Of a DNA stretch of 64,000 bases, positions 1 to 54,776 are shown in pieces. Where the stretch lies: the NCBI GenBank assembly GCA_951406725.2, contig OX597823.1:35774001-35838000 (forward strand), read 5' to 3'. This DNA comes from Octopus vulgaris (Eukaryota). Position 1 is the first letter of the stretch, and each line of letters opens with the position of its first letter. The translations under genes were made by a program, and so were the position numbers. The notes under the pieces are model-generated. The model ran no database searches. It saw nothing but the letters and a program-made list of their open reading frames with translations, and had not been told where the DNA came from.

Positions 1-2104
1 GTGCTTGATGATGTCATTAATGTCATTAATGTAAATGATGAAAAGAAGTGGGCCCAGCACAGTGCCTTGCGGAACGCCACTACTGACTTTGGCTGGGCTT
101 GATTTTACCCCTTCAACTACAACATGTTGAGATCTGTCTGTCAGGAAACACTTAATCCATTTCAGTAACTTTCCAGAGACACCAATGTTGGATAGTTTTT
201 TCAATAGGATCTTGTGATCGACCCTGTCGAAGGCCTTACTGAAATCAAGGTAGATGACATCGGTGTTGGAGCCCTCTCCCAAAGCTCTCAAAATGTCCTC
301 AAAGTGATGCAGGAGCTGCGTTAGGCAGTCTCTTCCATTACGGAACCCATGTTGGTTGGAGATCAGCCGTCTGTTGCTTTCCAGAAATTGGGTTATTCGA
401 GATCTCACCACCCTCTCAAATACCTTGATGATATGAGAGGTGAGTGAGATCGGACGGTAATTCACTGCAAGGGACTTGTTTCCCTTTTTGAAAACTGGGA
501 CAACAGACTGGGACAGAAGGTTTTTGGGAATATAGCCAGCATCCAGTGAGTTTCTCCACAGATTAGCAAGGGGAGATGCAAGTTGGTGTCGACACACCTT
601 CAGGACACAAGCAGGGAACCTATCGGGGCCTACTGCTGAATTGTGTTTTATTTCGTTTATCGCCGCTAAGACATCAGGGGCACTAAACGTTATGTCCGAT
701 ATAGTGTGTTGGGGGTTGACATCACTGATACAGCCCAGATCGGCCATATCAGGATTGCTGAAAACAGAGCAGTATTGTTTCTGCAGTATCTCGGCCATGG
801 ATTTGGCATTATCTTGGAGAGTGCCAGTTTCGTCAATTAGAGGGCCTACAGTGGAGACAGTGACCCTGCGTTTCCTCGCAAATGAAAAGAACACTTTGGG
901 GTTGAGTTTGATTTTTTCAATGGCCCACTTCTCCTCAGCTGATCTTTGGTTATTGATGAGGGACTTCATGCATTGTTGGAGGTTATATTTTTTGGATTCA
1001 AGCAGTGCGATAGCCGTCGAATGTGTGTGTTGCTGTTGGCAGTACTTTAGTTTGTTAATTTTTTTTGTTTGTTCTTTTTATTTTTCTGATAATGGTTTTT
1101 CTGTTTTGGGGGATTCTGCACTTTTTGTTCACAGGTCTTGGTGGGGAGTGTTTTGCACATATGTCTGTGACGGTGTCTACAAAGATCTGCCAAGATGTTT
1201 TATGGTTGGTGGAGATGTGTGTATGTGTAAAGGACCAGTCAACATTTGATAGCTCGTTCCTGATTGCATCCCAGTTGGCTTTATGGAGATCCATGTTGTC
1301 AAATGGGTGGGCTGGAGGAAGGTCACTAGGATTAGCTTTCGGCTGGTGGAATTTCAAGTTACAGAGAACCATGTCATGGTCTGAAAGAAGGGTTTTTTCC
1401 ACTGTAACGTTATGTATAGTGTTAGTGTGGTTACTAAACACTAGGTCCAAAATGTTCTGATGTCTTGTTGGTGCAAGGACAAGTTGGGACAAGAAAAACT
1501 CATTCGTAAAGTCGAAAAGTGACTCTGCTGCTTCTTTGTCAGCGGTTGAGGCGGGAGTGCTTGGTTTCAAACAGTTTGTAGTCCAGTCAACACAGGGTAG
1601 ATTGAAGTCTCCCATCATGAGTATGTTGCTAGAATGGCACTGTTGAATAAAGCACTTAATGCTGTTGAGGCATTCTTTAAAGCACAGTATGGGTGTTTGG
1701 GGCGGCCTATAGAGCCCAATTACTGTCAGGTCATTGGCTTTGTTGTGCACGGTGACTGATTCACAGTAGCCGTTGGAGAATATACTATTTCCATCTGCCG
1801 TAAATGAATCATGCAGGAAAATAGCAGTTCCACCCTTCCTCCTGCCGATACGATCCGCGCGGATGGTTGTGAAATTCTTCACTCTCACTTCGGCTTCCAA
1901 GTGGGAGTTGTCAAGGTGGGTCTCAGTGAGAATGAAGAAAGGGATGTGGTGTGAATGGTTACCAACCCAGTCTTCAATGAATTGGACCTTCCATTTTTGT
2001 GCATTGATGGAAGGGCTGACACCTTGTGCATTGAGTAGGAATGTGGAGGTTAGTGTAGTGGCTGGTTTTGACTGTTGCAGGGGGCTTGGATTTTTTTGTG
2101 TGTG
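1..2104 (-). pseudogene. LINE ORF2 (APE + reverse transcriptase) with a one-base frameshift in an A-run near 1058-1066
   Basis: The frame is open from 2104 to 1055. The reading continues in another frame (INKLKYCQQQ...NPKVFFSFARK...) to position 1. Confidence 0.88.
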
Positions 2105-12342: not shown

Positions 12343-13116
12343 TGTATGGATAGATATGTGTGTATTTATATATTTATGTGTACATTGCTATATACGTGTA
12401 TGTATACATATATATGTATATGTGTGTGTGTGTGTGTTTGTGTGTATTTGTATATATGTGTGTGTATGTAGAGAGTGAGCGAGATTGAGAGAGAGAAAGA
12501 AAGAGAAATGTGTGTGTATATACATATTATTTATTATATGTAGAGAAATAAATATGTGAACCAGCATGATCTTCCCAACCTCCCCTTCCAAACCAAAAAT
12601 ACACATACAACACACTTCTATCAACAAACATTTTTATCAAAAGATATTATCTTACACCTAATTAACACCACCACCCCAGATGCATACCTAAAACATATAG
12701 ATTGATTAAAAGAAAAAATTTGGAAAAACATCTAGTCATCAGATTTCTGACGAAAGGGCAACTATTCAAATGGCTTCACAAAACACTTCTTTAACACTCC
12801 ACCACCTCCCAACTCCACCCCAATCAATTATCTTGTGTTGATCATTTACCACTTTCTTTCAGCTATCATTCATCAACAGTTTTTCACTCCCACACTGATT
12901 AACGAACCTCAACCCAATGCCAAACACACCCAAATCTCATATATAGACTCACAAACCCCCAAATCCTCAGATCTGTTTGACAACGAATGCGAGGAAGTTT
13001 TCCAATGAAGTTAACAAGAAACTCATTTTAAAAATTTCTCCACACCCCAGTTAACGAAAAACTTACTAGATCTATGAACTAAAATTCATATTATCAAAAA
13101 ATAATGAAATAATATA

Positions 13117-13285
13117 GGCGCAGGAGTGGCTGTGTGGTAAGTAGCTTGCTTACCAACCACATGGTTCCGACCCACTGTGTGGCACCTTGGGAAAGTGTCT
13201 TCTACAATAGATTCGGGCCGACCAAAGCCTTGTGAGTAGATTTGGTTGACGGAAACTGAAAGAAGCCCGTCGTATATATATATAT
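13117..13285 (+). mobile_element. tRNA-derived SINE, 5' half
   Basis: ggcgcaggagtggctgtgtggtaag (A-box-like)...gacggaaactgaaagaagcccgtcg then (TA)n. Homologous to 16932-17048 and 52672-52819. Confidence 0.85.
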
Positions 13286-13289
13286 AGAT

Positions 13290-15316
13290 GTGAGAGAAGA
13301 TGTGAGTTTTGGCTCCGTGAATAGTAAAAAAGAACAAAAAGAAAAATTGTCAATTATGGCTCGCGAAATATTGTGTTCTTATCACTATAACGGTGAATTG
13401 AGAATTCTTGTTTGAAAATTCTTTTTGTAAATTCTAGTAGGCGTATCTCGCCAGACAAAGTGGAATTTTTTGGAACTGGAATACTTCAAGAGCAATTGGA
13501 TTACCTGTTTGGAGTATTATACAAAGGATTCCGTCTGTGCTATTTGTGAAGTTTTTCTTTTATTCTTCCCTTCTTCTATCTTTTCCTTTTTTCTTTCTAA
13601 ATTTTGGTTCATTCTTTTCATTACTTTAATTTCAGTTTCCTTTCCTCCTCTTTTATTTTGTTTTATTTTTATTCGGTTTAATTTTTTGGCAGACTGTCTT
13701 TTGAACTACTTTTGAACTGTTTTTAACATGGCAGAGAAGGAACTTAAAAAGAAAAACTCTGTCTTAGAGTGAGAAATTAACCCGCCTAAGCAGTGGTTAA
13801 AAGATATGGAGGAGAAGACGGTGGTGCTCAGAACTTATTCTAAAGTTCTTAATTCCATCACCGTCTTCCCAAAACAAGTTATAAAAAATGAACTTAAAGA
13901 CTATTTGTCCTCTTTAAAATATATATCCCGTGGTGTCAAACATGCAACCGTATGGTTGCTGTTTGACAACGGGGAAAAGGATCGCCAGTTTGCGAGTCAG
14001 CCTTTAGAAGGCAAGGAAATTCTGTTCCTCCCGTCATATTGCGGGAGGAGGTTAATAAGAGCCTGGGTATGTGGGTTATCCCCAGGCACCGAAGCGGATT
14101 GGATTGAAGATACCATCCGACTGGGACTAGGAGGTGGCGGGCCCAGGCTTTTAAATGTAAGGGTATTGCCGGAGGTCGATTGGGAAGGGTCAAAAGCGAT
14201 TTTGACCTGTGGACCCAATCGGCCGCAACAGATCTGTTTTTTCCAGATTTCTTGAAAATGGCTGGCTGCAGGTATCCGGTGATACTTGAGGGACATCCCC
14301 CCCAAGTGTCACTCGTGCCTGCAGCCAGGCCACATTAAAAGGAACTGCTCCCAGGACCATGGTAAGGTCCTGGAACAGTCACTAGATGCCACCTCCCCTA
14401 CCCGGTCAAAGGGAGAAGTGGATGTGGTCGAGGAGGCTTCAGCCTTCTCAACTCAAAAAGGATTAAAAAGGAAGAAGGCGGGCAACGATAGTTGCCCGCC
14501 GAAGGAACCTGAGGCTTCGGGAGGCGGAGGAGAGTTTCCGGACAAAGCGGAAGAGCTCCACTCTCCCGAAGTCAGGAAGAAAAGAAAATAAAGAAGAACG
14601 GGTCATCGCAGGGGGGGAGATGATGTGCCGTCTGCATGTCCCGAAGTTGTGCCACCTACGGTGGAAGAAACCACCCCCACCCTTAAAGATGATCAATTAA
14701 TTATCTTTTTCTATAAGAGCGGGGAGGTGGAAAAATAGTAGAAGAACATAAAGAGACAGTAGCTATTCCCTTCACACGGGATCCCGAATGGCCTCCGCAG
14801 ATAGCTGTGGAGGTCATAAGGTTTCCTTTGTGGGAAAGGCTTAAAGGATTTGGGGAGGAGTGTCGCATATGGCCGGGTGGCCCTTACACGACTTACATGT
14901 CCTACATGAGTGAGGCATGGGAAATGGCGGGATACAGGAAGTCAAGCGGCATTGAAGATAATGATGAATATATCGATTGATATATCGAAGAGTAGGAGGT
15001 GAAAGACCCTCGTTATAGGGTTTGAAACCTCATCTTATTGTATTATTTGTTGTGGTTTATAACCTCAATTGTGTGTTTAAAAAAAACATGTTAAGTAAGA
15101 GGTTTTAGTGGCTCCTTCTTGTAAGAGGTTTGAAACCCTCATATTGATTTTTTAAAAAAAAGAAAATATGTTTTCGAGAAAAATCCAATCGGCGGGTGTT
15201 GGGTTTCGTCTCTCATTTATTCGTTCTATTTCATTTTCATTCATTAATGTGTTTGTCCAGCCCGCAAAGCTACACACTCTTTGTACTGTCTATGATGACA
15301 AATTTTATGAAATAAA
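13290..15316 (+). mobile_element. ORF1-only retroelement, copy 1 (Tx1/L1-like gag with CCHC knuckle)
   Basis: T-rich leader, disrupted ORF 13728-14980 with YPVILEGHPPKCHSCLQPGHIKRNC, 3' UTR ending atgaaataaa. No ORF2. Confidence 0.75.
13728..14980 (+). pseudogene. ORF1/gag-like protein with zinc knuckle, stops and frameshifts
   Basis: MAEKELKKKNSVLE*EINPPKQWLKDMEEKTVV...; C-x2-C-x4-H-x4-C near 14306-14348. Confidence 0.75.
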
Positions 15317-15330
15317 GTAGCTTGCTTACC

Positions 15331-16931
15331 TTGCTTGACAGTAGAGTTAGCATGTCCATGCTACTTGGAAGTAACTTCTTTCGACGTGAAATACTGAACG
15401 TTTAAGGCTCGACTACAGGTAGGCGTTTGTTTTATTTTGGGGGGCCTAGTGGAATTTTTGTTGTTCTGTTAGTAATAATTTTTGTTGAGCAACAGTCTCC
15501 ACTCTGCTCCAGACATTTGCCTGCCTGTGGTCGTGCGAAATGACTCACTTTGCAGTGAGAATTGTGTTTTTGAGGAGGCGTATCCCCTCCGCAAAAATTT
15601 GTTGGCTGTGAAAATTGTCTTTACCATTTGTGGATGACCAGTTTGGATTAAGAAAAAGGTCGCCGTCAAATGGTTTTGTTGTTTCTGAGCTGGGTAGAAT
15701 TTTTGTGTGTTTTATTTTTATTACAGTATATTCTGCCCAGCTCTGAAGCATTTTCGCTTACTCTTGGCGGTGTTGTGATTGTGCTTGTTAACAAGCGAAG
15801 AACTTCAAGGTGAATATTTTCACTACAGTTATTTTGGAAAAAATTGGTGCTTGCAAGCTGTGCGTAGTTTTGAACCCGGAAACGTTGGAAGTACTTTACC
15901 AGGAGGATTATCAAGAGATTTGAAGGCTGCAAGTGAGCTGGGAGTACCGTGTAGCACAAAAATTGTATTTTCTGCCGTGGAGAATTGTACAATATTTATT
16001 TTTCTGAACTGCTGTCTTTTCATTCCTTTTGCTGAACAATTTTAGTTGGACTAGTATTTTATTTCTTCCAATTTTAGTTGAACTGTGTTTTTATTTTTAT
16101 TGTGTTCAAAGACTTTTTGTTGTTTTTGGTTGAGTGACTTTTTTCCTTGTTTGAACTATGTTTTGTCTACATGGCAGATAAAATGATAAAAAATAAGACC
16201 ACTGCTTTGGAGTGGGAGATTGTCCCACCTAAGCAGTAGTTAAAAGATATGGAGGAGAGGACGATGGTGGTTAGAACTTACACTAAAGTTCTTGATACCA
16301 TCACCGTTTTCCCAAAACAAACCATTGAAAAAGAACTAAAAGACTATTTGTCCCCTACAAAATATATATCCCGGGATGCCAGGCATGCAACGGTGTGGTT
16401 GCTGCTTGAGGAGGCTTGCATTTTGCAAGTCAGCCTTTGGAGGTAAAGGAACTTTTGCTCCTCCCGTCGTACTGCGGGAGGAAGGTGATAAGAGCCTGGG
16501 TATGTGGGCTACCACCGGGCATAGAGGTGGGTTGGATAGGAGTTACCGTCCGACGGGGCCTGGGGGATAGCGGGCTCAGGCTCTTAAATGTAAGAGTGAC
16601 GCCTGCGGTCAACTGGGAGGGTGCAAAGGCAACTCTGACCCAGTGGACCCCAGTGGCCGCAGGCAAAATGACCTTCCCTGACCTTTTTAGGATGGCTGGC
16701 TCCAGGTATCCAGTGATTCTTGAGGGTCGCCTCCGCCCAAGTGTCACTCGTACCGGGAGTTAGGCCATATCAAGAAGGACTGCTCCCGGGGCTGTGGCAA
16801 GGCTCCGGAGCAGGAAAAAGGGAAGGTGCCCTCCACTCTCCCATTGCAGGGAGAAACGGAGGAAGTCGTTTAGGTGTCGACCTCAACGAGAAGGAAGAGA
16901 AAGGTGAGTAACTTTATTTCGATGAAATAAA
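15331..16931 (+). mobile_element. ORF1-only retroelement, copy 2, flanked by the 14-bp direct repeat GTAGCTTGCTTACC
   Basis: The paralogous ORF starts at 16171 (MADKMIKNKTTALEWEIVPPKQ*LKDMEERT). Direct repeats are at 15317-15330 and 16932-16945. Confidence 0.78.
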
Positions 16932-17147
<216 letters not shown>

Positions 17148-18120: not shown

Positions 18121-18652
18121 GCTCAGAGCTGCGGCCATGCTGATGCATCGCCGTTTTGCGCTACACTGTAATTACTTAGAGCCTCCTCTAATATGTAGCA
18201 CTTGGGGAAGAATGGAGTTTGATATAGCTACCCTCATTTGCACCTCTTGCGAGAGGTAGTTTCATCTGGGACTCTCGACAGAAAGAGGTCCAGCTTTGAT
18301 TTAAAAACCGCTACATCTACTTTGTGCAAGTTCCTCAGACTCTTTGAGAGAATATTAAAAAGCTGTGGGCCCTTGAAACCCAGGCTGTTGCAGTAGCTGG
18401 TCCTGAAGCGTGACGGCATAGCTGGGATCTTTGGCACTATGTAGTGTCGTCCCGTTCTAGCATTGGTGTAGCTTACAATGCCAACATTTGGCATAATTCC
18501 TTCCAGGATCTTCCAGATATATATTACTGCATACCTCTCCCATCTTCTCTCCAGGGAGTAGAGTCTTAGCTGTTTCAACCTTTCCCAGTAGCTGAGCTGT
18601 TGCAAAGAGACGATCTTCTTTGTGAATCTTCTCTGGATTGCTTCAAGGTCCG
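18117..18652 (-). mobile_element. CR1 LINE 3' fragment with 3' tail, between (TA)n tracts
   Basis: [18 protein letters not shown]...YIWKIL...[13 protein letters not shown]...FKSKLDLFL is a typical CR1 ORF2 C-terminus. Confidence 0.9.
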
Positions 18653-18667
18653 CTACATATGCATATA

Positions 18668-18782
<115 letters not shown>

Positions 18783-18912: not shown

Positions 18913-20315
18913 ATTTCATATCTAAAAATATCAATATTTTAAAAAATAAATTTAAAATGGCTAAAACTATAAATAATATAAATTTATCAATGAAAAAATA
19001 TAAAAAATATATATTCTATATATAATCTATATATAATATAATCAAGAACTAAAATAACCTCTATAAACAATTGAATATAAAGAAACTTATTATTAAAGTT
19101 CTCATATTTAAAGATGAAGAATCTAATTTCAAAAAACAAAAAACAAAAAACAAAAAACAAAAATAAAAATAAACTATATATAAAACACATGCTCATACAC
19201 ATATATATAAGTATATATAAACATATCTAAATACATACACTAACTCACACGCCCATATATATCTCTATACATACACATAAACATCTAGGCAACGATAAAT
19301 TAATAAAATAGCCAAATACTTCAACACATTACTTATTCATACTCCCTCACACACACATACAACCCTCATTCATAAACACACTCACTCTGCATGACAACCA
19401 CACAACCAGCATCCGCATATACTCAACCACAACAATATAAACATTTCATTCTTAGCAAGAAACTACCAAATACCAAATACCACATATATACCACAACAAT
19501 ACATAAATACTTAAACCAAACACACACACACACATATCCAAATACCACATGCATGCAACAAACATACACAAATACGCAAACAAACACACTCGCACACATA
19601 TTCAAATACCACATGCATGCAACAAACATACACACACACATATCCAAATACCACATGCATGCAACAAACATACACAAATACGCAAACAAACACACACACA
19701 CACATTTACACATACATAAACACTCAAAAGAAAAACAACATTTCTACACATAAACAATGCACACCCACACACATTCACACACAATCACTCACATACAACC
19801 GCACTCCTACCGCCACTCCAACACAGATGAGTAACAAATTTAGCAGATACATACTCTCAGCCACTTACATACAGTAATATTCCCTACTCAGCAATATACT
19901 ATTAAAAAACCCCAACACCACTCTAAAACAAATTTATGAATGTGCATAATAACTTATATTGAGTTATTCTATTAATAAATCATTTAAAAACAGACCTATC
20001 TATTTATCAAAGTATGTCTAAATTATTGATAATTAATAACAAAGAAAATACGATAAATAGAACACTCCATAAGCAACAAGATTAACATAAGCAACAATAT
20101 TAACATAAGGAGAAAAAAATACATACTTCTATTCAATTTTAAAGTTATGAAGTGAATTTAAAGTCTAACCGTTATAACGTTTACAAAATTACGTTACCAT
20201 AGAAATAGAAATAGAACATATTTATAATAAATTCTCTACGCGTTATGAACGAACGTTATTTAAAAATTATGAATGGAATAGAATGGAATAAATGTTAATA
20301 ATCGTAATTAGACAG

Positions 20316-20590
20316 AATTTACTATATAATTCTTTAATAAAACAATCATGATAAACGAAACCCATATATACATATAATGATAAAACCTCCCTTTAACCAT
20401 ACACAATAACATACCTATATAGCAATCCCCTAATCTATACATTCACGTACAAATATACACACGTATAACACACACCCACAACATATACATATACCCACTC
20501 ACACATACATATACATACGTACAAAACTCGATATATACACCAATATATTCACACCCACATCCATATAGATAAATAAATATATATACATCC

Positions 20591-20626
<36 letters not shown>

Positions 20627-21235
20627 TCACATATCATCAAATACACATATATATAAAAATACACACATTCACAAAAAAATAAATAAATGAATATTTATTA
20701 TATGTATATATGAGTGTGTACACGCAAACGGGTGCAATCTCACGCACAATCAAACATGCATGTATACAAGTGCATACACAAGCACACACTTTTACATAGC
20801 GCTCATGCACTCCCGCATCTACACATGCACTTATACACGCGCACACGTGCACACAGACCCATGCACGTGCATATTCACGGACACCCTCCTAAACATCTAA
20901 ATATACGTATATATGGCTACAAACTATACCCAAATAAAATAAGACTACCATGATCAACATACCAAACTATAATACATGGGGACTAAATTTACTAAAAAAT
21001 TCTTTAATAAAACAATCATGATAAACGAAAATCATACATACAAATATAATGATAAAACCCCTTACCAAATACACAATACACACAAGTACACACACATATA
21101 TTTACACAAACCCATAAACATATACATATACACACTCACACATACATATACATACATACAATATTCGATACATACACCAATATATTCACTCCCACACCCA
21201 TATAGATTAATAAATAAATACATATACAAACATAA

Positions 21236-23000: not shown

Positions 23001-23093
23001 TTATTAGTATATATACATATAATAAATATTCATTTATTTATTTTTTTGTGAATGTGTGTATTTATATATATATGTGTATTTGATGATATGTGA

Positions 23094-23145
<52 letters not shown>

Positions 23146-24827
23146 ATGTATATATATTTATTTATTTATCTATATGGGTGTGGGTGTGAATATATTGGTG
23201 TATATATCGAGTTTTGTACGTATGTATATGTATGTGTGAGTGGGTATATGTATATGTTGTGGGTGTGTGTTATACGTGTGTGTATTTGTATGTGAATGTA
23301 TAGATTAGGGGATTGCTATATAGGTATGTTATTGTGTATGGTTAAAGGGAGGTTTTATCATTATATGTATATATGGGTTTCGTTTATCATGATTGTTTTA
23401 TTAAAGAATTTTATAGTAAATTCTGTCTAATTACGATTATTAACAATTATTCCATTCTATTCCATTCATAATTTTTAAATAACGTTCGTTCATAACGCAC
23501 AGAGAATTTATTATAAATATGTTCTATTTCTATTTCTATGGTAACGTAATTTTGTAAACGTTATAACGGTTAGACTTTAAATTCACTTCATAACTTTAAA
23601 ATTGAATAGAAGGTATGTATTTTTTTCTCCTTATGTTAATCTTGTTGCTTATGGAGTGTTCTATTTATCGTATTTTCTTTGTTATTAATTATCAATAATT
23701 TAGACATACTTTGATAAATAGATAGGTCTGTTTTTAAATGATTTATTAATAGAATAACTCAATATAAGTTATTATGCACATTCATAAATTTGTTTTAGAG
23801 TGGTGTTGGGGTTTTTTAATAGTATATTGCTGAGTAGGGAATATTACTGTATGTAAGTGGCTGAGAGTATGTATCTGCTAAATTTGTTACTCATTTGTGT
23901 TGGAGTGGCGGTAGGAGTGCGGTTGTATGTGAATGATTGTGTGTGAATGTGTGTGGGTGTGCATTGTTTATGTGTAGAAATGTTGTTTTTCTTTTGAGTG
24001 TTTATGTATGTGTAAATGTGTGTGTGTGTGTGTGTGTGTGTGTTTGTTTGCGTATTTGTGTATGTTTGTTGTATGCATGTGGTATTTGGATATGTGTGTG
24101 TGTAATGTTTGTTGCATGCATGTGGTATTTGAATATGTGTGCGAGTGTGTTTGCGTATTTGTGTATGTTTGTTGCATGCATGTGGTATTTGGATATGTGT
24201 GTGTGTGTGTTTGGTTTAAGTATTTATGTATTGTTGTGGTATATATGTGGTATTTGGTATTTGGTAGTTTCTTGCTAAGAATGAAATGTTTATATTGTTG
24301 TGGTTGAGTATATGCGGATGCTGGTTGTGTGGTTGTCATGCAGAGTGAGTGTGTTTATGAATGAGGGTTGTATGTGTGTGTGAGGGAGTATGAATAAGTA
24401 ATGTGTTGAAGTATTTGGCTATTTTATTAATTTATCGTTGCCTAGATGTTTGTGTATATGTATAGAGATATATATGGGCGTGTGAGTTAGTGTATGTATT
24501 TAGATATGTTTATATATACTTATATATATGTGTATGAGCATGTGTGTATATATAGTTTATTTTTATTTTTGTTTTTTGTTTTTTGTTTTTTGTTTTTTGA
24601 AATTAGATTCTTCATCTTTAAATATGAGAACTTTAATAATAGGTTTCTTTATATTCAATTGTTTATAGAGGTTATTTTAGTTCTTGATTATATTATATAT
24701 AGATTATATATAGATTATATATAGATTATATATTTTTTATATTTTTTCATTGATAAATATATATTATTTATAGTTTTAGCCATTTTAAATTTATTTTTTA
24801 AAATATTGCTATTTTTAGATATGAAAT

Positions 24828-52819: not shown

Positions 52820-54776
52820 TATATGCAAATACATACACACACAAATACATACACACACATATATGTATTTATAATGATTGCCACTTCTTTACAGAAGAAG
52901 GCCATCTCTTCAATTAATACATACTGTCATGAGATCTTATATGACTAGTAAGTCCTGCTCTTGACAAACAAACTCTACTGCAGACCTTACAAATATTTTT
53001 TTAGGCAGAAAAGTGGCTGGGATTGTGCTTGTTTCGAGATAGATTTCTAATTGTTGGAGCTTCAAATGCTTTACACCTACTGTAGATCATTTGTTTCCAA
53101 ACCGATTGATCTTGCGTCATCTGCTCTCAGTCTTCAACTTTCACATTAAGAGCCTTAAGAGACTTAAGGTATCTTTTGACCGAATCCATAAAACGTGTCT
53201 CGGGCGTTTGCAACGTAAAACAATTGCTTTGGCAACCTGTCAACCTGCATGCTAGCAAGGTGGCCAACCCACCGTTTCTAATTGCGTATGAGGATCACTT
53301 CAATACTGGATGTGTTAGGTTGCTAAAGAACAACGGTGTCTGGTGTTAAAGACTTCCATTTGATGTCTAGTATCCTCCTTAGGCAAGTCTGATAGAATCT
53401 TTCTAAAGCCTTGCTATGGTGCTGATATGTCATCCAGGTCTCAGAAGAGTACAGGAGGAGCGTTAAAATGCAAGATTCATAGATACTAAGCTTGGTTTTG
53501 AAGGTGATACCTCTATCAGACCACACATGATTTTATAGCCTTCCAAATACTTTCCTGGCGTTTTTCAATTCTCAAGTTTATTTCAGAATCAAGGGATCCA
53601 TCTCTAGAGAGTGATGCCAAGGTACATGAACGAGTCAACCACATCTAATCTTGGACCCTGGACGAAGATGTTAGGTTCCACATAGGATTGGCCTGGTGGT
53701 TGAGAGAATATGATCTTTGTTTTCTTTAGACTGATGGTAAGTCCAAAAGTAATACTAGCCCCAGAGAAGGGAACAAACATAGCCTGCATTTCCTCCTCGG
53801 TGTGAGCAACGAGAACTACATCATCAGTATAAATGAGCTCTCGAACAAGGCCATGGAATGTCTTCGACTTTGCATTAAAGCGTTTAACATCAAATACCTT
53901 ACCTGTGGTTCTGAAGCAAATATAGATACTGATATCACAGTCTTGGAAAGTGTGTAAGATAGTTACAGCAAAATATAGGGCGAAAGTGTTGGAGCAGCAA
54001 TATCACCTTGTTTAACTCCGTAATGGATGAAAATTGGTTCCGATAATCACCCATTGAAGTTAAGACGAGCTTTCATATCACTATAAAGTTGCTTAAGCAG
54101 GTTGACAAATTGAGATAGACATCCAAGTTTACCAAGAATGGTCTAGTGATCGGTCCTATTAACAGTCGTAAAGAGCCATGCGATGTTCGATGCATTTCTC
54201 CTGGAGTTGACGAGCAGAAAAATCAGGTCCATTGTGCCACGACTTGATTTAAAACCACACTGACTCTCCGGGATGACAGAGGGGCATATCTACATCATTA
54301 GCCGATTGAGTAAAAGTTTTGCAGAAACTTTACCGACTATTTCAAGCAGGCTTGTACTTCTGTAATTACCACACTCGTATTTGGATCCTTTTCCTTTGAA
54401 CAATGAAATTAAAATGGGGAACAGGAGCACCCAACCAGATGTATGATATTAGATGTGGATCTCTACAGCAAGCCTATTACCTCAGTGAATGAGAATTTCA
54501 ACAGGAATACCGTCAAGACCTGATGCCTTCACAGCATTTAATTCTTTGATTGTCTTTTTGATCTCATCTATAGTTGGATGTTCCATCATCTCATGAATGA
54601 GATCCTTTTGAAGCAGATTACTGATGACATTTTAATCAATAACTGAAGGTACCACAAATGAAGACTTAGGACCAAACACTTGTCCTATGAAGTGATATAT
54701 TGTTCTATATTTAAGAGATGAGGAATTATGTACATTATTTATATTTGACGGATATTTGTCCTCATCTTGTTTGTTA

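Follow-up and report, generated by a model that had tools for sequence, protein, structure and literature searches.

ORF1-only retroelements stacked at a fixed base in the head of a SINE of Octopus vulgaris

Two decayed elements in one stretch of contig OX597823.1

The window, the whole stretch of 64,000 nt of Octopus vulgaris DNA analysed here, contains two adjacent elements lying among fragments of an abundant SINE whose head appears tRNA-like. The features of this region are as follows.

13117..13285, +, target SINE in a separate, partial copy that comprises the head, the unoccupied site (13141-13153) and the body up to an internal microsatellite, with a short deletion in the B-box-like stretch and the second half missing
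13286..13293, +, abnormal left junction of copy 1, a putative deletion
13294..15316, +, copy 1, an ORF1-only element, delimited by sequence comparison with its family
13728..14980, +, ORF1 of copy 1, interrupted by a stop and frameshifts
14307..14348, +, intact CCHC knuckle of copy 1 (PF00098 match and motif)
15267..15273, +, tail motif AAGCTAC, reverse-complementary to nt 1-7 of the target
15287..15300, +, 4-bp hairpin of the tail, also present in the autonomous partner and showing compensatory changes between families
15317..15329, +, target site at the internal junction of copies 1 and 2
15330..16931, +, copy 2, from a second ORF1-only family with relatives of ~2.3 kb; ~700 nt deleted at ~16912
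16171..16912, +, ORF1 remnant of copy 2, with a stop at 16237, frameshifts and a degenerate knuckle
16932..17145, +, right target site (16932-16944) and the rest of the host SINE, with ~24 nt deleted after 16952 and the second half missing

Comparison with the genome confirms that both elements are dead, decayed members of genome-wide ORF1-only families. The first-pass annotation, made from the letters of the window, had described two diverged ORF1-type elements without a reverse transcriptase (RT), each with its own Trp-to-stop change, and this description stands: the two ORF1 cores share 75% DNA identity, no ORF2 match was found in 13100-17100, and the frame of copy 1 (ATG at 13728) has a Trp-to-TGA change at 13770, while that of copy 2 (ATG at 16171) has a Trp-to-TAG change at 16237, with additional frameshifts in both. 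The knuckle was likewise rightly called intact in copy 1 (C-x2-C-x4-H-x4-C, 14307-14348; PF00098, E 5.6e-4, its 20.3 bits just missing the cut-off of 20.8) and degenerate in copy 2 (16742-16783), where the second Cys is replaced by Tyr. Both copies had been said to end in ATGAAATAAA followed at once by a 14-mer of the SINE. Across the whole window, this combination starts at 15307 and 16922 and nowhere else, and the 14-mer itself starts only at 13141, 15317, and 16932.

No target duplication is present on the left side of copy 1, as had been noted, and the copy also lacks the first ~47 nt of its own family. The SINE found 5' of it is a separate, partial copy that breaks at its internal microsatellite. 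A deletion is the likely cause of this junction and would have taken the host SINE head, the left duplication and the missing ~47 nt of the element. We also considered a template switch to a whole SINE RNA; as the SINE breaks at the microsatellite and not at its 3' end, and as a deletion is simpler, we prefer the latter. Copy 1 is otherwise 92% identical to one natural full-length copy of a family of ~2.07 kb. A deletion at ~16912 has cost copy 2 ~700 nt of its 3' part and left it just the final ~12-19 nt of the tail; of five relatives that were fetched, two reach the SINE site after 2.3-2.5 kb and lack ORF2, and the other three do not close within the DNA fetched. The SINE does resume after copy 2, from 16945 on, though ~24 nt are missing, including the B-box-like stretch. 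Identity to the nearest relative is 97% for copy 1 and 92% for copy 2, in figures that compare different regions, and copy 1 looks younger, which fits its insertion at the left junction of copy 2.

A fixed insertion point in the SINE

The flanks of related copies show that the insertion point is one fixed base, before nt 25 of the SINE. Using the last 318 nt of copy 1 as query, we obtained 1,306 candidates in the 2.8-Gb genome, of which 40 were scored and 30 fetched. All 30 of these best-ranked family-1 3' ends, the window being one of them, lead into the site or one of its variants, after which comes the SINE body in 28 and another element in two. The exact 22-nt 3' end occurs 102 times in the genome; among the first 30 in contig order, an unranked set that overlaps the best-ranked one, 29 lie at the site, 27 of them matching the 13-mer within 2 edits and two with a shifted or foreign continuation, while L225 has only GTAG. 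The tabulation of 3' flanks that the first-pass annotation had proposed thus finds them not to be random. At the other end, 27/30 family-1 copies follow a SINE head and the site, one follows the tail of another element, and the remaining two are an internal duplication and the window itself. For copy-2-type elements, the 5' end comes after the SINE head and site in 23/30, after an element tail in six (window included), and after neither in one. The 3' ends of the autonomous element described below are at the site in 30/30 cases, two of them judged by eye. Both this element and family 1 exceed the level of target specificity for the Tx1 clade, more than 20% of flanks being one sequence, that is set out in the part of PMC4494074 consulted.

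An exact 3' junction lacking poly(A), together with a left 14-mer whose final bases are indeed element-derived, could also be expected if the SINE body were part of the element, through a shared tail or 3' transduction, the flank being carried and not targeted. Divergence between copies refutes this reading, to which we give next to no probability. At loci with both junctions, the median p-distance among 27 autonomous copies is 0.005 in the last 200 nt and 0.067 in the next 120 nt of SINE, the two being uncorrelated (r = -0.10); the corresponding values for element and SINE flank are 0.015 and 0.067 in 34 young ORF1-only copies, and 0.060 and 0.121 in 16 family-1 copies. SINE flanks ~10 times more diverged than the young elements indicate independent targets. 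In addition, the 5'-truncated copies L005, L023, L208, L254, and L256 still come after a SINE head, and exact empty sites in the genome outnumber exact occupied right junctions by 61,591 to 574 (28,401 to 209 for the TAAC variant), so that ~1% of exact SINE sites are occupied.

The first-pass annotation had left the target as a SINE or a tRNA, and the SINE half of this claim is the one that holds. The SINE head does resemble a tRNA at relaxed ARAGORN thresholds (a call in 3/17 at 90% and 11/17 at 80%, the identity being unstable at 80%), which would suit a tRNA gene as the true target and the SINE as a look-alike; there was no call at the default ARAGORN setting or in Rfam, the search of which returned microsatellite noise only. 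However, 149/151 right flanks continue into the SINE body, so tRNA genes are not the target in the sampled junctions, and the element ends follow changes of SINE subfamily. We therefore regard a tRNA-gene target as very improbable, and targeting of the SINE itself as the reading to retain. Insertion of the SINE into its own head was seen in 0 cases, a weak test as the loci had been chosen for elements. Names for octopus SINE families, such as OR1, are given in PMC4824008, in the part consulted.

Structure of the junctions

The 14-mer had been read as a target site duplication, which is true of part of its length. Private site variants occur on both sides in L148, L171, L193, and L208, indicating a true duplication of the target, and in 5'-truncated copies 7-13 bases of the target remain on the left. 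The left copy usually owes its last bases to the element: among 12 full-length TAAC-family copies sitting in non-TAAC sites, 11 keep CTAAC at the left junction, so the 5' end of the element carries the second half of the site. The 14-mer is thus made up of two parts, a duplication of 7-13 nt and bases of the element 5' end that look like the target. The 3' end, AAATAAA, in turn resembles the sequence that precedes the site. The element RNA may start inside the site, by analogy with R2 (PMC6795142, in the part consulted).

Two further observations concern the 5' ends. In the first 20 nt after the site, the autonomous element (L121) and the copy-2 family (L064) share a short 5'-terminal motif despite their distant ORF1. 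A further family at the same site (L079, L180, L232, and L284) has a distinct 5' end, CCCATGA, and measures 380-960 nt where it closes.

ORF1-only families under selection

Beyond the decayed copies of the window, the genome contains young ORF1-only families of near-identical 2.0-2.3-kb copies with an intact ORF1 of 412-416 aa and both junctions. Such repeated full-length copies, with ORF1 and without ORF2, are what characterizes an ORF1-encoding non-autonomous LINE. It could be argued that these copies are deletion products of an autonomous LINE and not lineages that move, since internal deletions are common (copy 2 of the window and the L167 fusion are examples) and the genome search scored 150 of 11,216 ORF1 candidates. 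This seems improbable to us given the near-identity and intactness of the copies and the absence of ORF2 at 20/20 ORF1-only loci; at 40 further loci ORF2 was met in four, three of which are separate stacked autonomous elements and the fourth the L167 fusion. In addition, the families have diverged to saturation at silent sites while under purifying selection. Five of them, represented by one natural copy each, are 61-71% identical in amino acids over ~175 codons, and their 10 pairs give dS of 1.1-2.7 and dN/dS of 0.07-0.19, ratios that are rough with dS near saturation. This codon comparison shows purifying selection acting on the ORF1 of the five families, and we retain the reading of ORF1-only lineages. 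The L167 locus itself joins a passenger ORF1 to the ORF2 of the autonomous element without a target junction, a chimera seen in one case.

Homologues of the ORF1 were found in cephalopods only, including one at 74% identity in Octopus sinensis. Contigs of four runs, three of them guessed to be RNA, cover 30/30 bins of a young stack, and show neither ends nor transcription. An integrase-like frame lies inside a copy-2-family element (L062:2638-3282), and the O. sinensis protein P0183 fuses such parts.

A candidate autonomous helper

An autonomous partner was reached through a zf-RVT fragment with a similar tail, which led to 145 scored matches. Twenty of these matches were retrieved whole: 16 represent a 5.45-kb family, here called the helper, that occupies the same SINE site, and four a related family (61% identical in the compared region) that has no SINE site. 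The helper encodes an ORF1 of 467 aa and an ORF2 of 1133 aa with PF03372, PF00078, and PF13966 (endonuclease, RT, and zinc domains), and thus combines the features of the L1/Tx1 group: an APE endonuclease, an RT, a C-terminal zinc motif and no LTRs. Its ORF2 matches human L1 ORF2 at E 8e-67 versus 6e-20 for R2, in a labelled comparison made up of PDB entries for L1, R2, and an L1 loop chimera. A CCHC-knuckle ORF1 is a feature of the Tx1 clade. The CCHC motif is present in all lineages, the helper ORF1 scoring 20.7 bits against the Pfam knuckle (cut-off 20.8), and the system probably belongs to the Tx1 clade.

The first-pass annotation had predicted a partner with endonuclease and RT that has the same ORF1 and 3' end. 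The helper agrees with this in its tail, 85% identical to that of the passengers over the last 54 nt, and in its target; its ORF1 departs from it, with 23-28% amino acid identity to the five ORF1-only families. These families therefore do not descend recently from the helper lineage, and some autonomous element nearer to them may have escaped the sampling. In a sixth ORF1-only family, ORF1 identity is 40% to the helper and 24-28% to the other five, which suggests a second ORF1-only origin. Intact helpers, like intact passengers, are ~99% identical, so both are still young in the genome.

A related L1/Tx1-group family with intact frames lies outside the SINE site at L135-L138 (three within 250 kb on C29, one on C10). 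Homologues of ORF2 at ~30% were also seen in the fish Coilia grayii (P0101, P0102, P0163, and P0164), whose neighbouring gene numbers suggest a tandem array.

Tail signals and succession of SINE subfamilies

The tail of every family closes with a 4-bp hairpin and AAATAAA and lacks poly(A). Sequence comparison across families indicates that the hairpin is conserved and covarying: 95.8% of cells are paired, with 14 two-sided changes, in 24 of 30 tail-cluster representatives (six were dropped as truncated, rearranged or redundant). Controls slid along the alignment give 8-54%, and 0/500 shuffles reach the observed value, a significance that kinship among the sequences can inflate.

A second tail signal, a motif complementary to the initial bases of the site, varies with the target. 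Over 148 junctions, whose copies are not independent, GT sites carry AGCTAC in 75 tails, AGCTTC in one and neither in 52, while GA sites carry AGCTAC in one, AGCTTC in 11 and neither in eight. The switch is seen both in the helper tail, 81 nt from the end, and in passenger tails, at 44-50 nt. The exact motif is missing in 60/148, and hence is not obligatory. The older GA-TTCC subfamily of the SINE has 3,811 exact empty sites, and at 20 loci its sites are occupied by families that are older and further decayed and whose left junctions match. Of 61 young elements, 42 are in TAAC sites, compared with 46% of exact empty sites (p 3e-4), an excess that could reflect either a change in enzyme preference or timing and chromatin. 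We also looked at GT-TTCC as an escape variant, as it was found in nine of an initial 100 empty sites and in 0 of an initial 100 occupied ones; genome-wide, however, it accounts for 795 of 61,591, and the idea was dropped because the first 100 sites are unrepresentative.

Stacks and arrays

Among 117 ends not chosen for stacking, 11 adjoin another element, against ~2% expected (p 2.5e-5; the expectation comes from exact-match counts, and the sets overlap). Five arrays, picked for looking stacked, were followed and contain 9, at least 7, at least 5, 4, and 3 elements, the longest covering 17 kb in one SINE. Near-identical neighbours within an array (C5_3/C5_5, C5_4/C5_6, and C1_1/C1_2 differ by 1-2 nt) and array-specific junction variants could mean that stacks come mainly from tandem duplication or the copying of whole arrays. 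On balance we think this unlikely as the main source, given that arrays, the window included, mix families whose ORF1 are 25-70% identical, that nearest relatives can lie on other contigs (C5_1 and C10_5 to C1_4, with 4 mismatches), and that near-identical copies have different neighbours. Repeated targeted insertion is thus the preferred source of the stacks, and the neighbours at 1-2 mismatches indicate an additional part for local tandem duplication or assembly error. The units that have diverged least are on the head side in two arrays, and have their nearest relatives on other contigs; the age order over 36 junction rows, by best-hit identity, is mixed and depends on sampling. Template jumping was considered as well, as GTAGCTT+TGCTAAC is found in 9/17 internal and 4/54 head junctions. 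It was dropped since this variant belongs to particular arrays, in one of them at the head junction too, so that the counts are not independent.

Discussion

The proposal for the elements of the window was that they are non-autonomous and ORF1-only, insert site-specifically into a SINE head and stack at a target that insertion regenerates; each of these properties extends to the genome as a whole. That the observation as a whole is real is well supported. The dead ORF1-only non-LTR copies at this fixed SINE base were likely inserted by the APE and RT of an autonomous L1/Tx1-group LINE that shares their site and tail. The endonuclease cleavage, the RNA ends, and the trans-mobilization of passengers are steps that we infer from sequence. 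The APE of the helper would nick the bottom strand at TAA/GTAG, and its ORF2 protein would bind the tail hairpin of the passenger in trans and prime reverse transcription there, probably aided by a few read-through target bases. The 5' end of the RNA, which would begin inside the target (..TGCT[A/T]AC), could anneal to the top-strand overhang, while the passenger's own ORF1 protein may package its RNA in cis. Insertion would separate the promoter-like halves of the SINE. As the element resembles, at its 3' end, the bases that precede the site and, at its 5' end, the second half of the site, we propose that each insertion leaves two usable sites, which would let arrays grow, mostly from the head side. 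A bolder version, in which the system finds its site by RNA-DNA pairing through the 7-nt tail motif, co-changing with SINE subfamilies in helper and passengers, and acts as a self-renewing SINE parasite that forms HeT-A-like arrays and prefers occupied sites, is possible but doubtful.

Several known systems share parts of this behaviour. In the consulted part of PMC4494074, Xenopus Tx1 targets Tx1D, and crocodilian Tx1-Mar and SINEU-3 target Mariner-N4_AMi, with tandem SINEU-3 insertions that sandwich the target site duplication. As in Tx1 and Tx1-Mar, an L1-group LINE here targets another mobile element, with a non-autonomous passenger on the same target. Unlike Tx1-Mar and SINEU-3, the octopus target is one base of a SINE head, the passengers encode ORF1, and mixed arrays reach up to nine elements. 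HAL1, HeT-A, and Ag-Sponge are named ORF1-encoding non-autonomous LINEs from the L1, Jockey, and CR1 clades, respectively, and no SINE-specific insertion is described for them in the consulted parts of PMC5786205 and PMC5753468. The octopus passengers resemble them in having ORF1 only, no RT, and need of an autonomous partner, here a predicted one, and differ in that at least two ORF1-only origins appear to share one site. HeT-A forms head-to-tail telomeric arrays. HAL1 in the strict sense, a mammalian L1 minus ORF2, does not fit the octopus elements, whose ORF1 is of the knuckle type with homologues only in cephalopods.

R2 has one ORF and a restriction-like endonuclease, unlike the octopus helper, whose ORF2 is an APE-RT far closer to L1. 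According to the consulted part of PMC6795142, the R2 RNA carries upstream and downstream 28S target bases, and their annealing sets the exact junctions. The octopus junctions similarly suggest RNA ends that anneal to the target. Dewa, for its part, targets tRNA arrays. Keno, Kibi, and Koshi are target-specific Tx1-clade elements in multicopy sequences (PMC4494074, in the part consulted). All four use host RNA genes or microsatellites, whereas the octopus target is a SINE with successive subfamilies. The consulted parts of two papers on octopus repeats (PMC13282606, PMC8967140) treat L1-Tx1 as a class only, and their supplements may hold these families. No description of a SINE-head-targeting ORF1-only system was found among the papers searched. 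A 1995 study, to go by its title, reportedly concerns a site-specific retroelement and bovine Alu-like sequences.

Three known habits, the targeting of a mobile element, ORF1-only passengers and target-pairing RNA ends, come together here in one young system. The target itself has evolved, each SINE subfamily having its own element families, which makes the retargeting of a LINE readable from one genome. A selected ORF1 that is only ~25% identical to that of the helper bears on why ORF1-only elements keep ORF1 at all. With a compact LINE, a 13-nt site and a small tail signal, the system is directly testable.

Other features of the window

Other LINE remnants with endonuclease and RT frames lie at 1-2104 (-), 18234-18782 (-), and 54005-54592 (-), and have no relation to the SINE site. 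The window also contains long nested inverted repeats at 19185-20677 and 23061-24545, with arms of 410-552 nt at 94-98% identity and ~2.4 kb apart at the centre, which may represent a foldback element or an inverted duplication.
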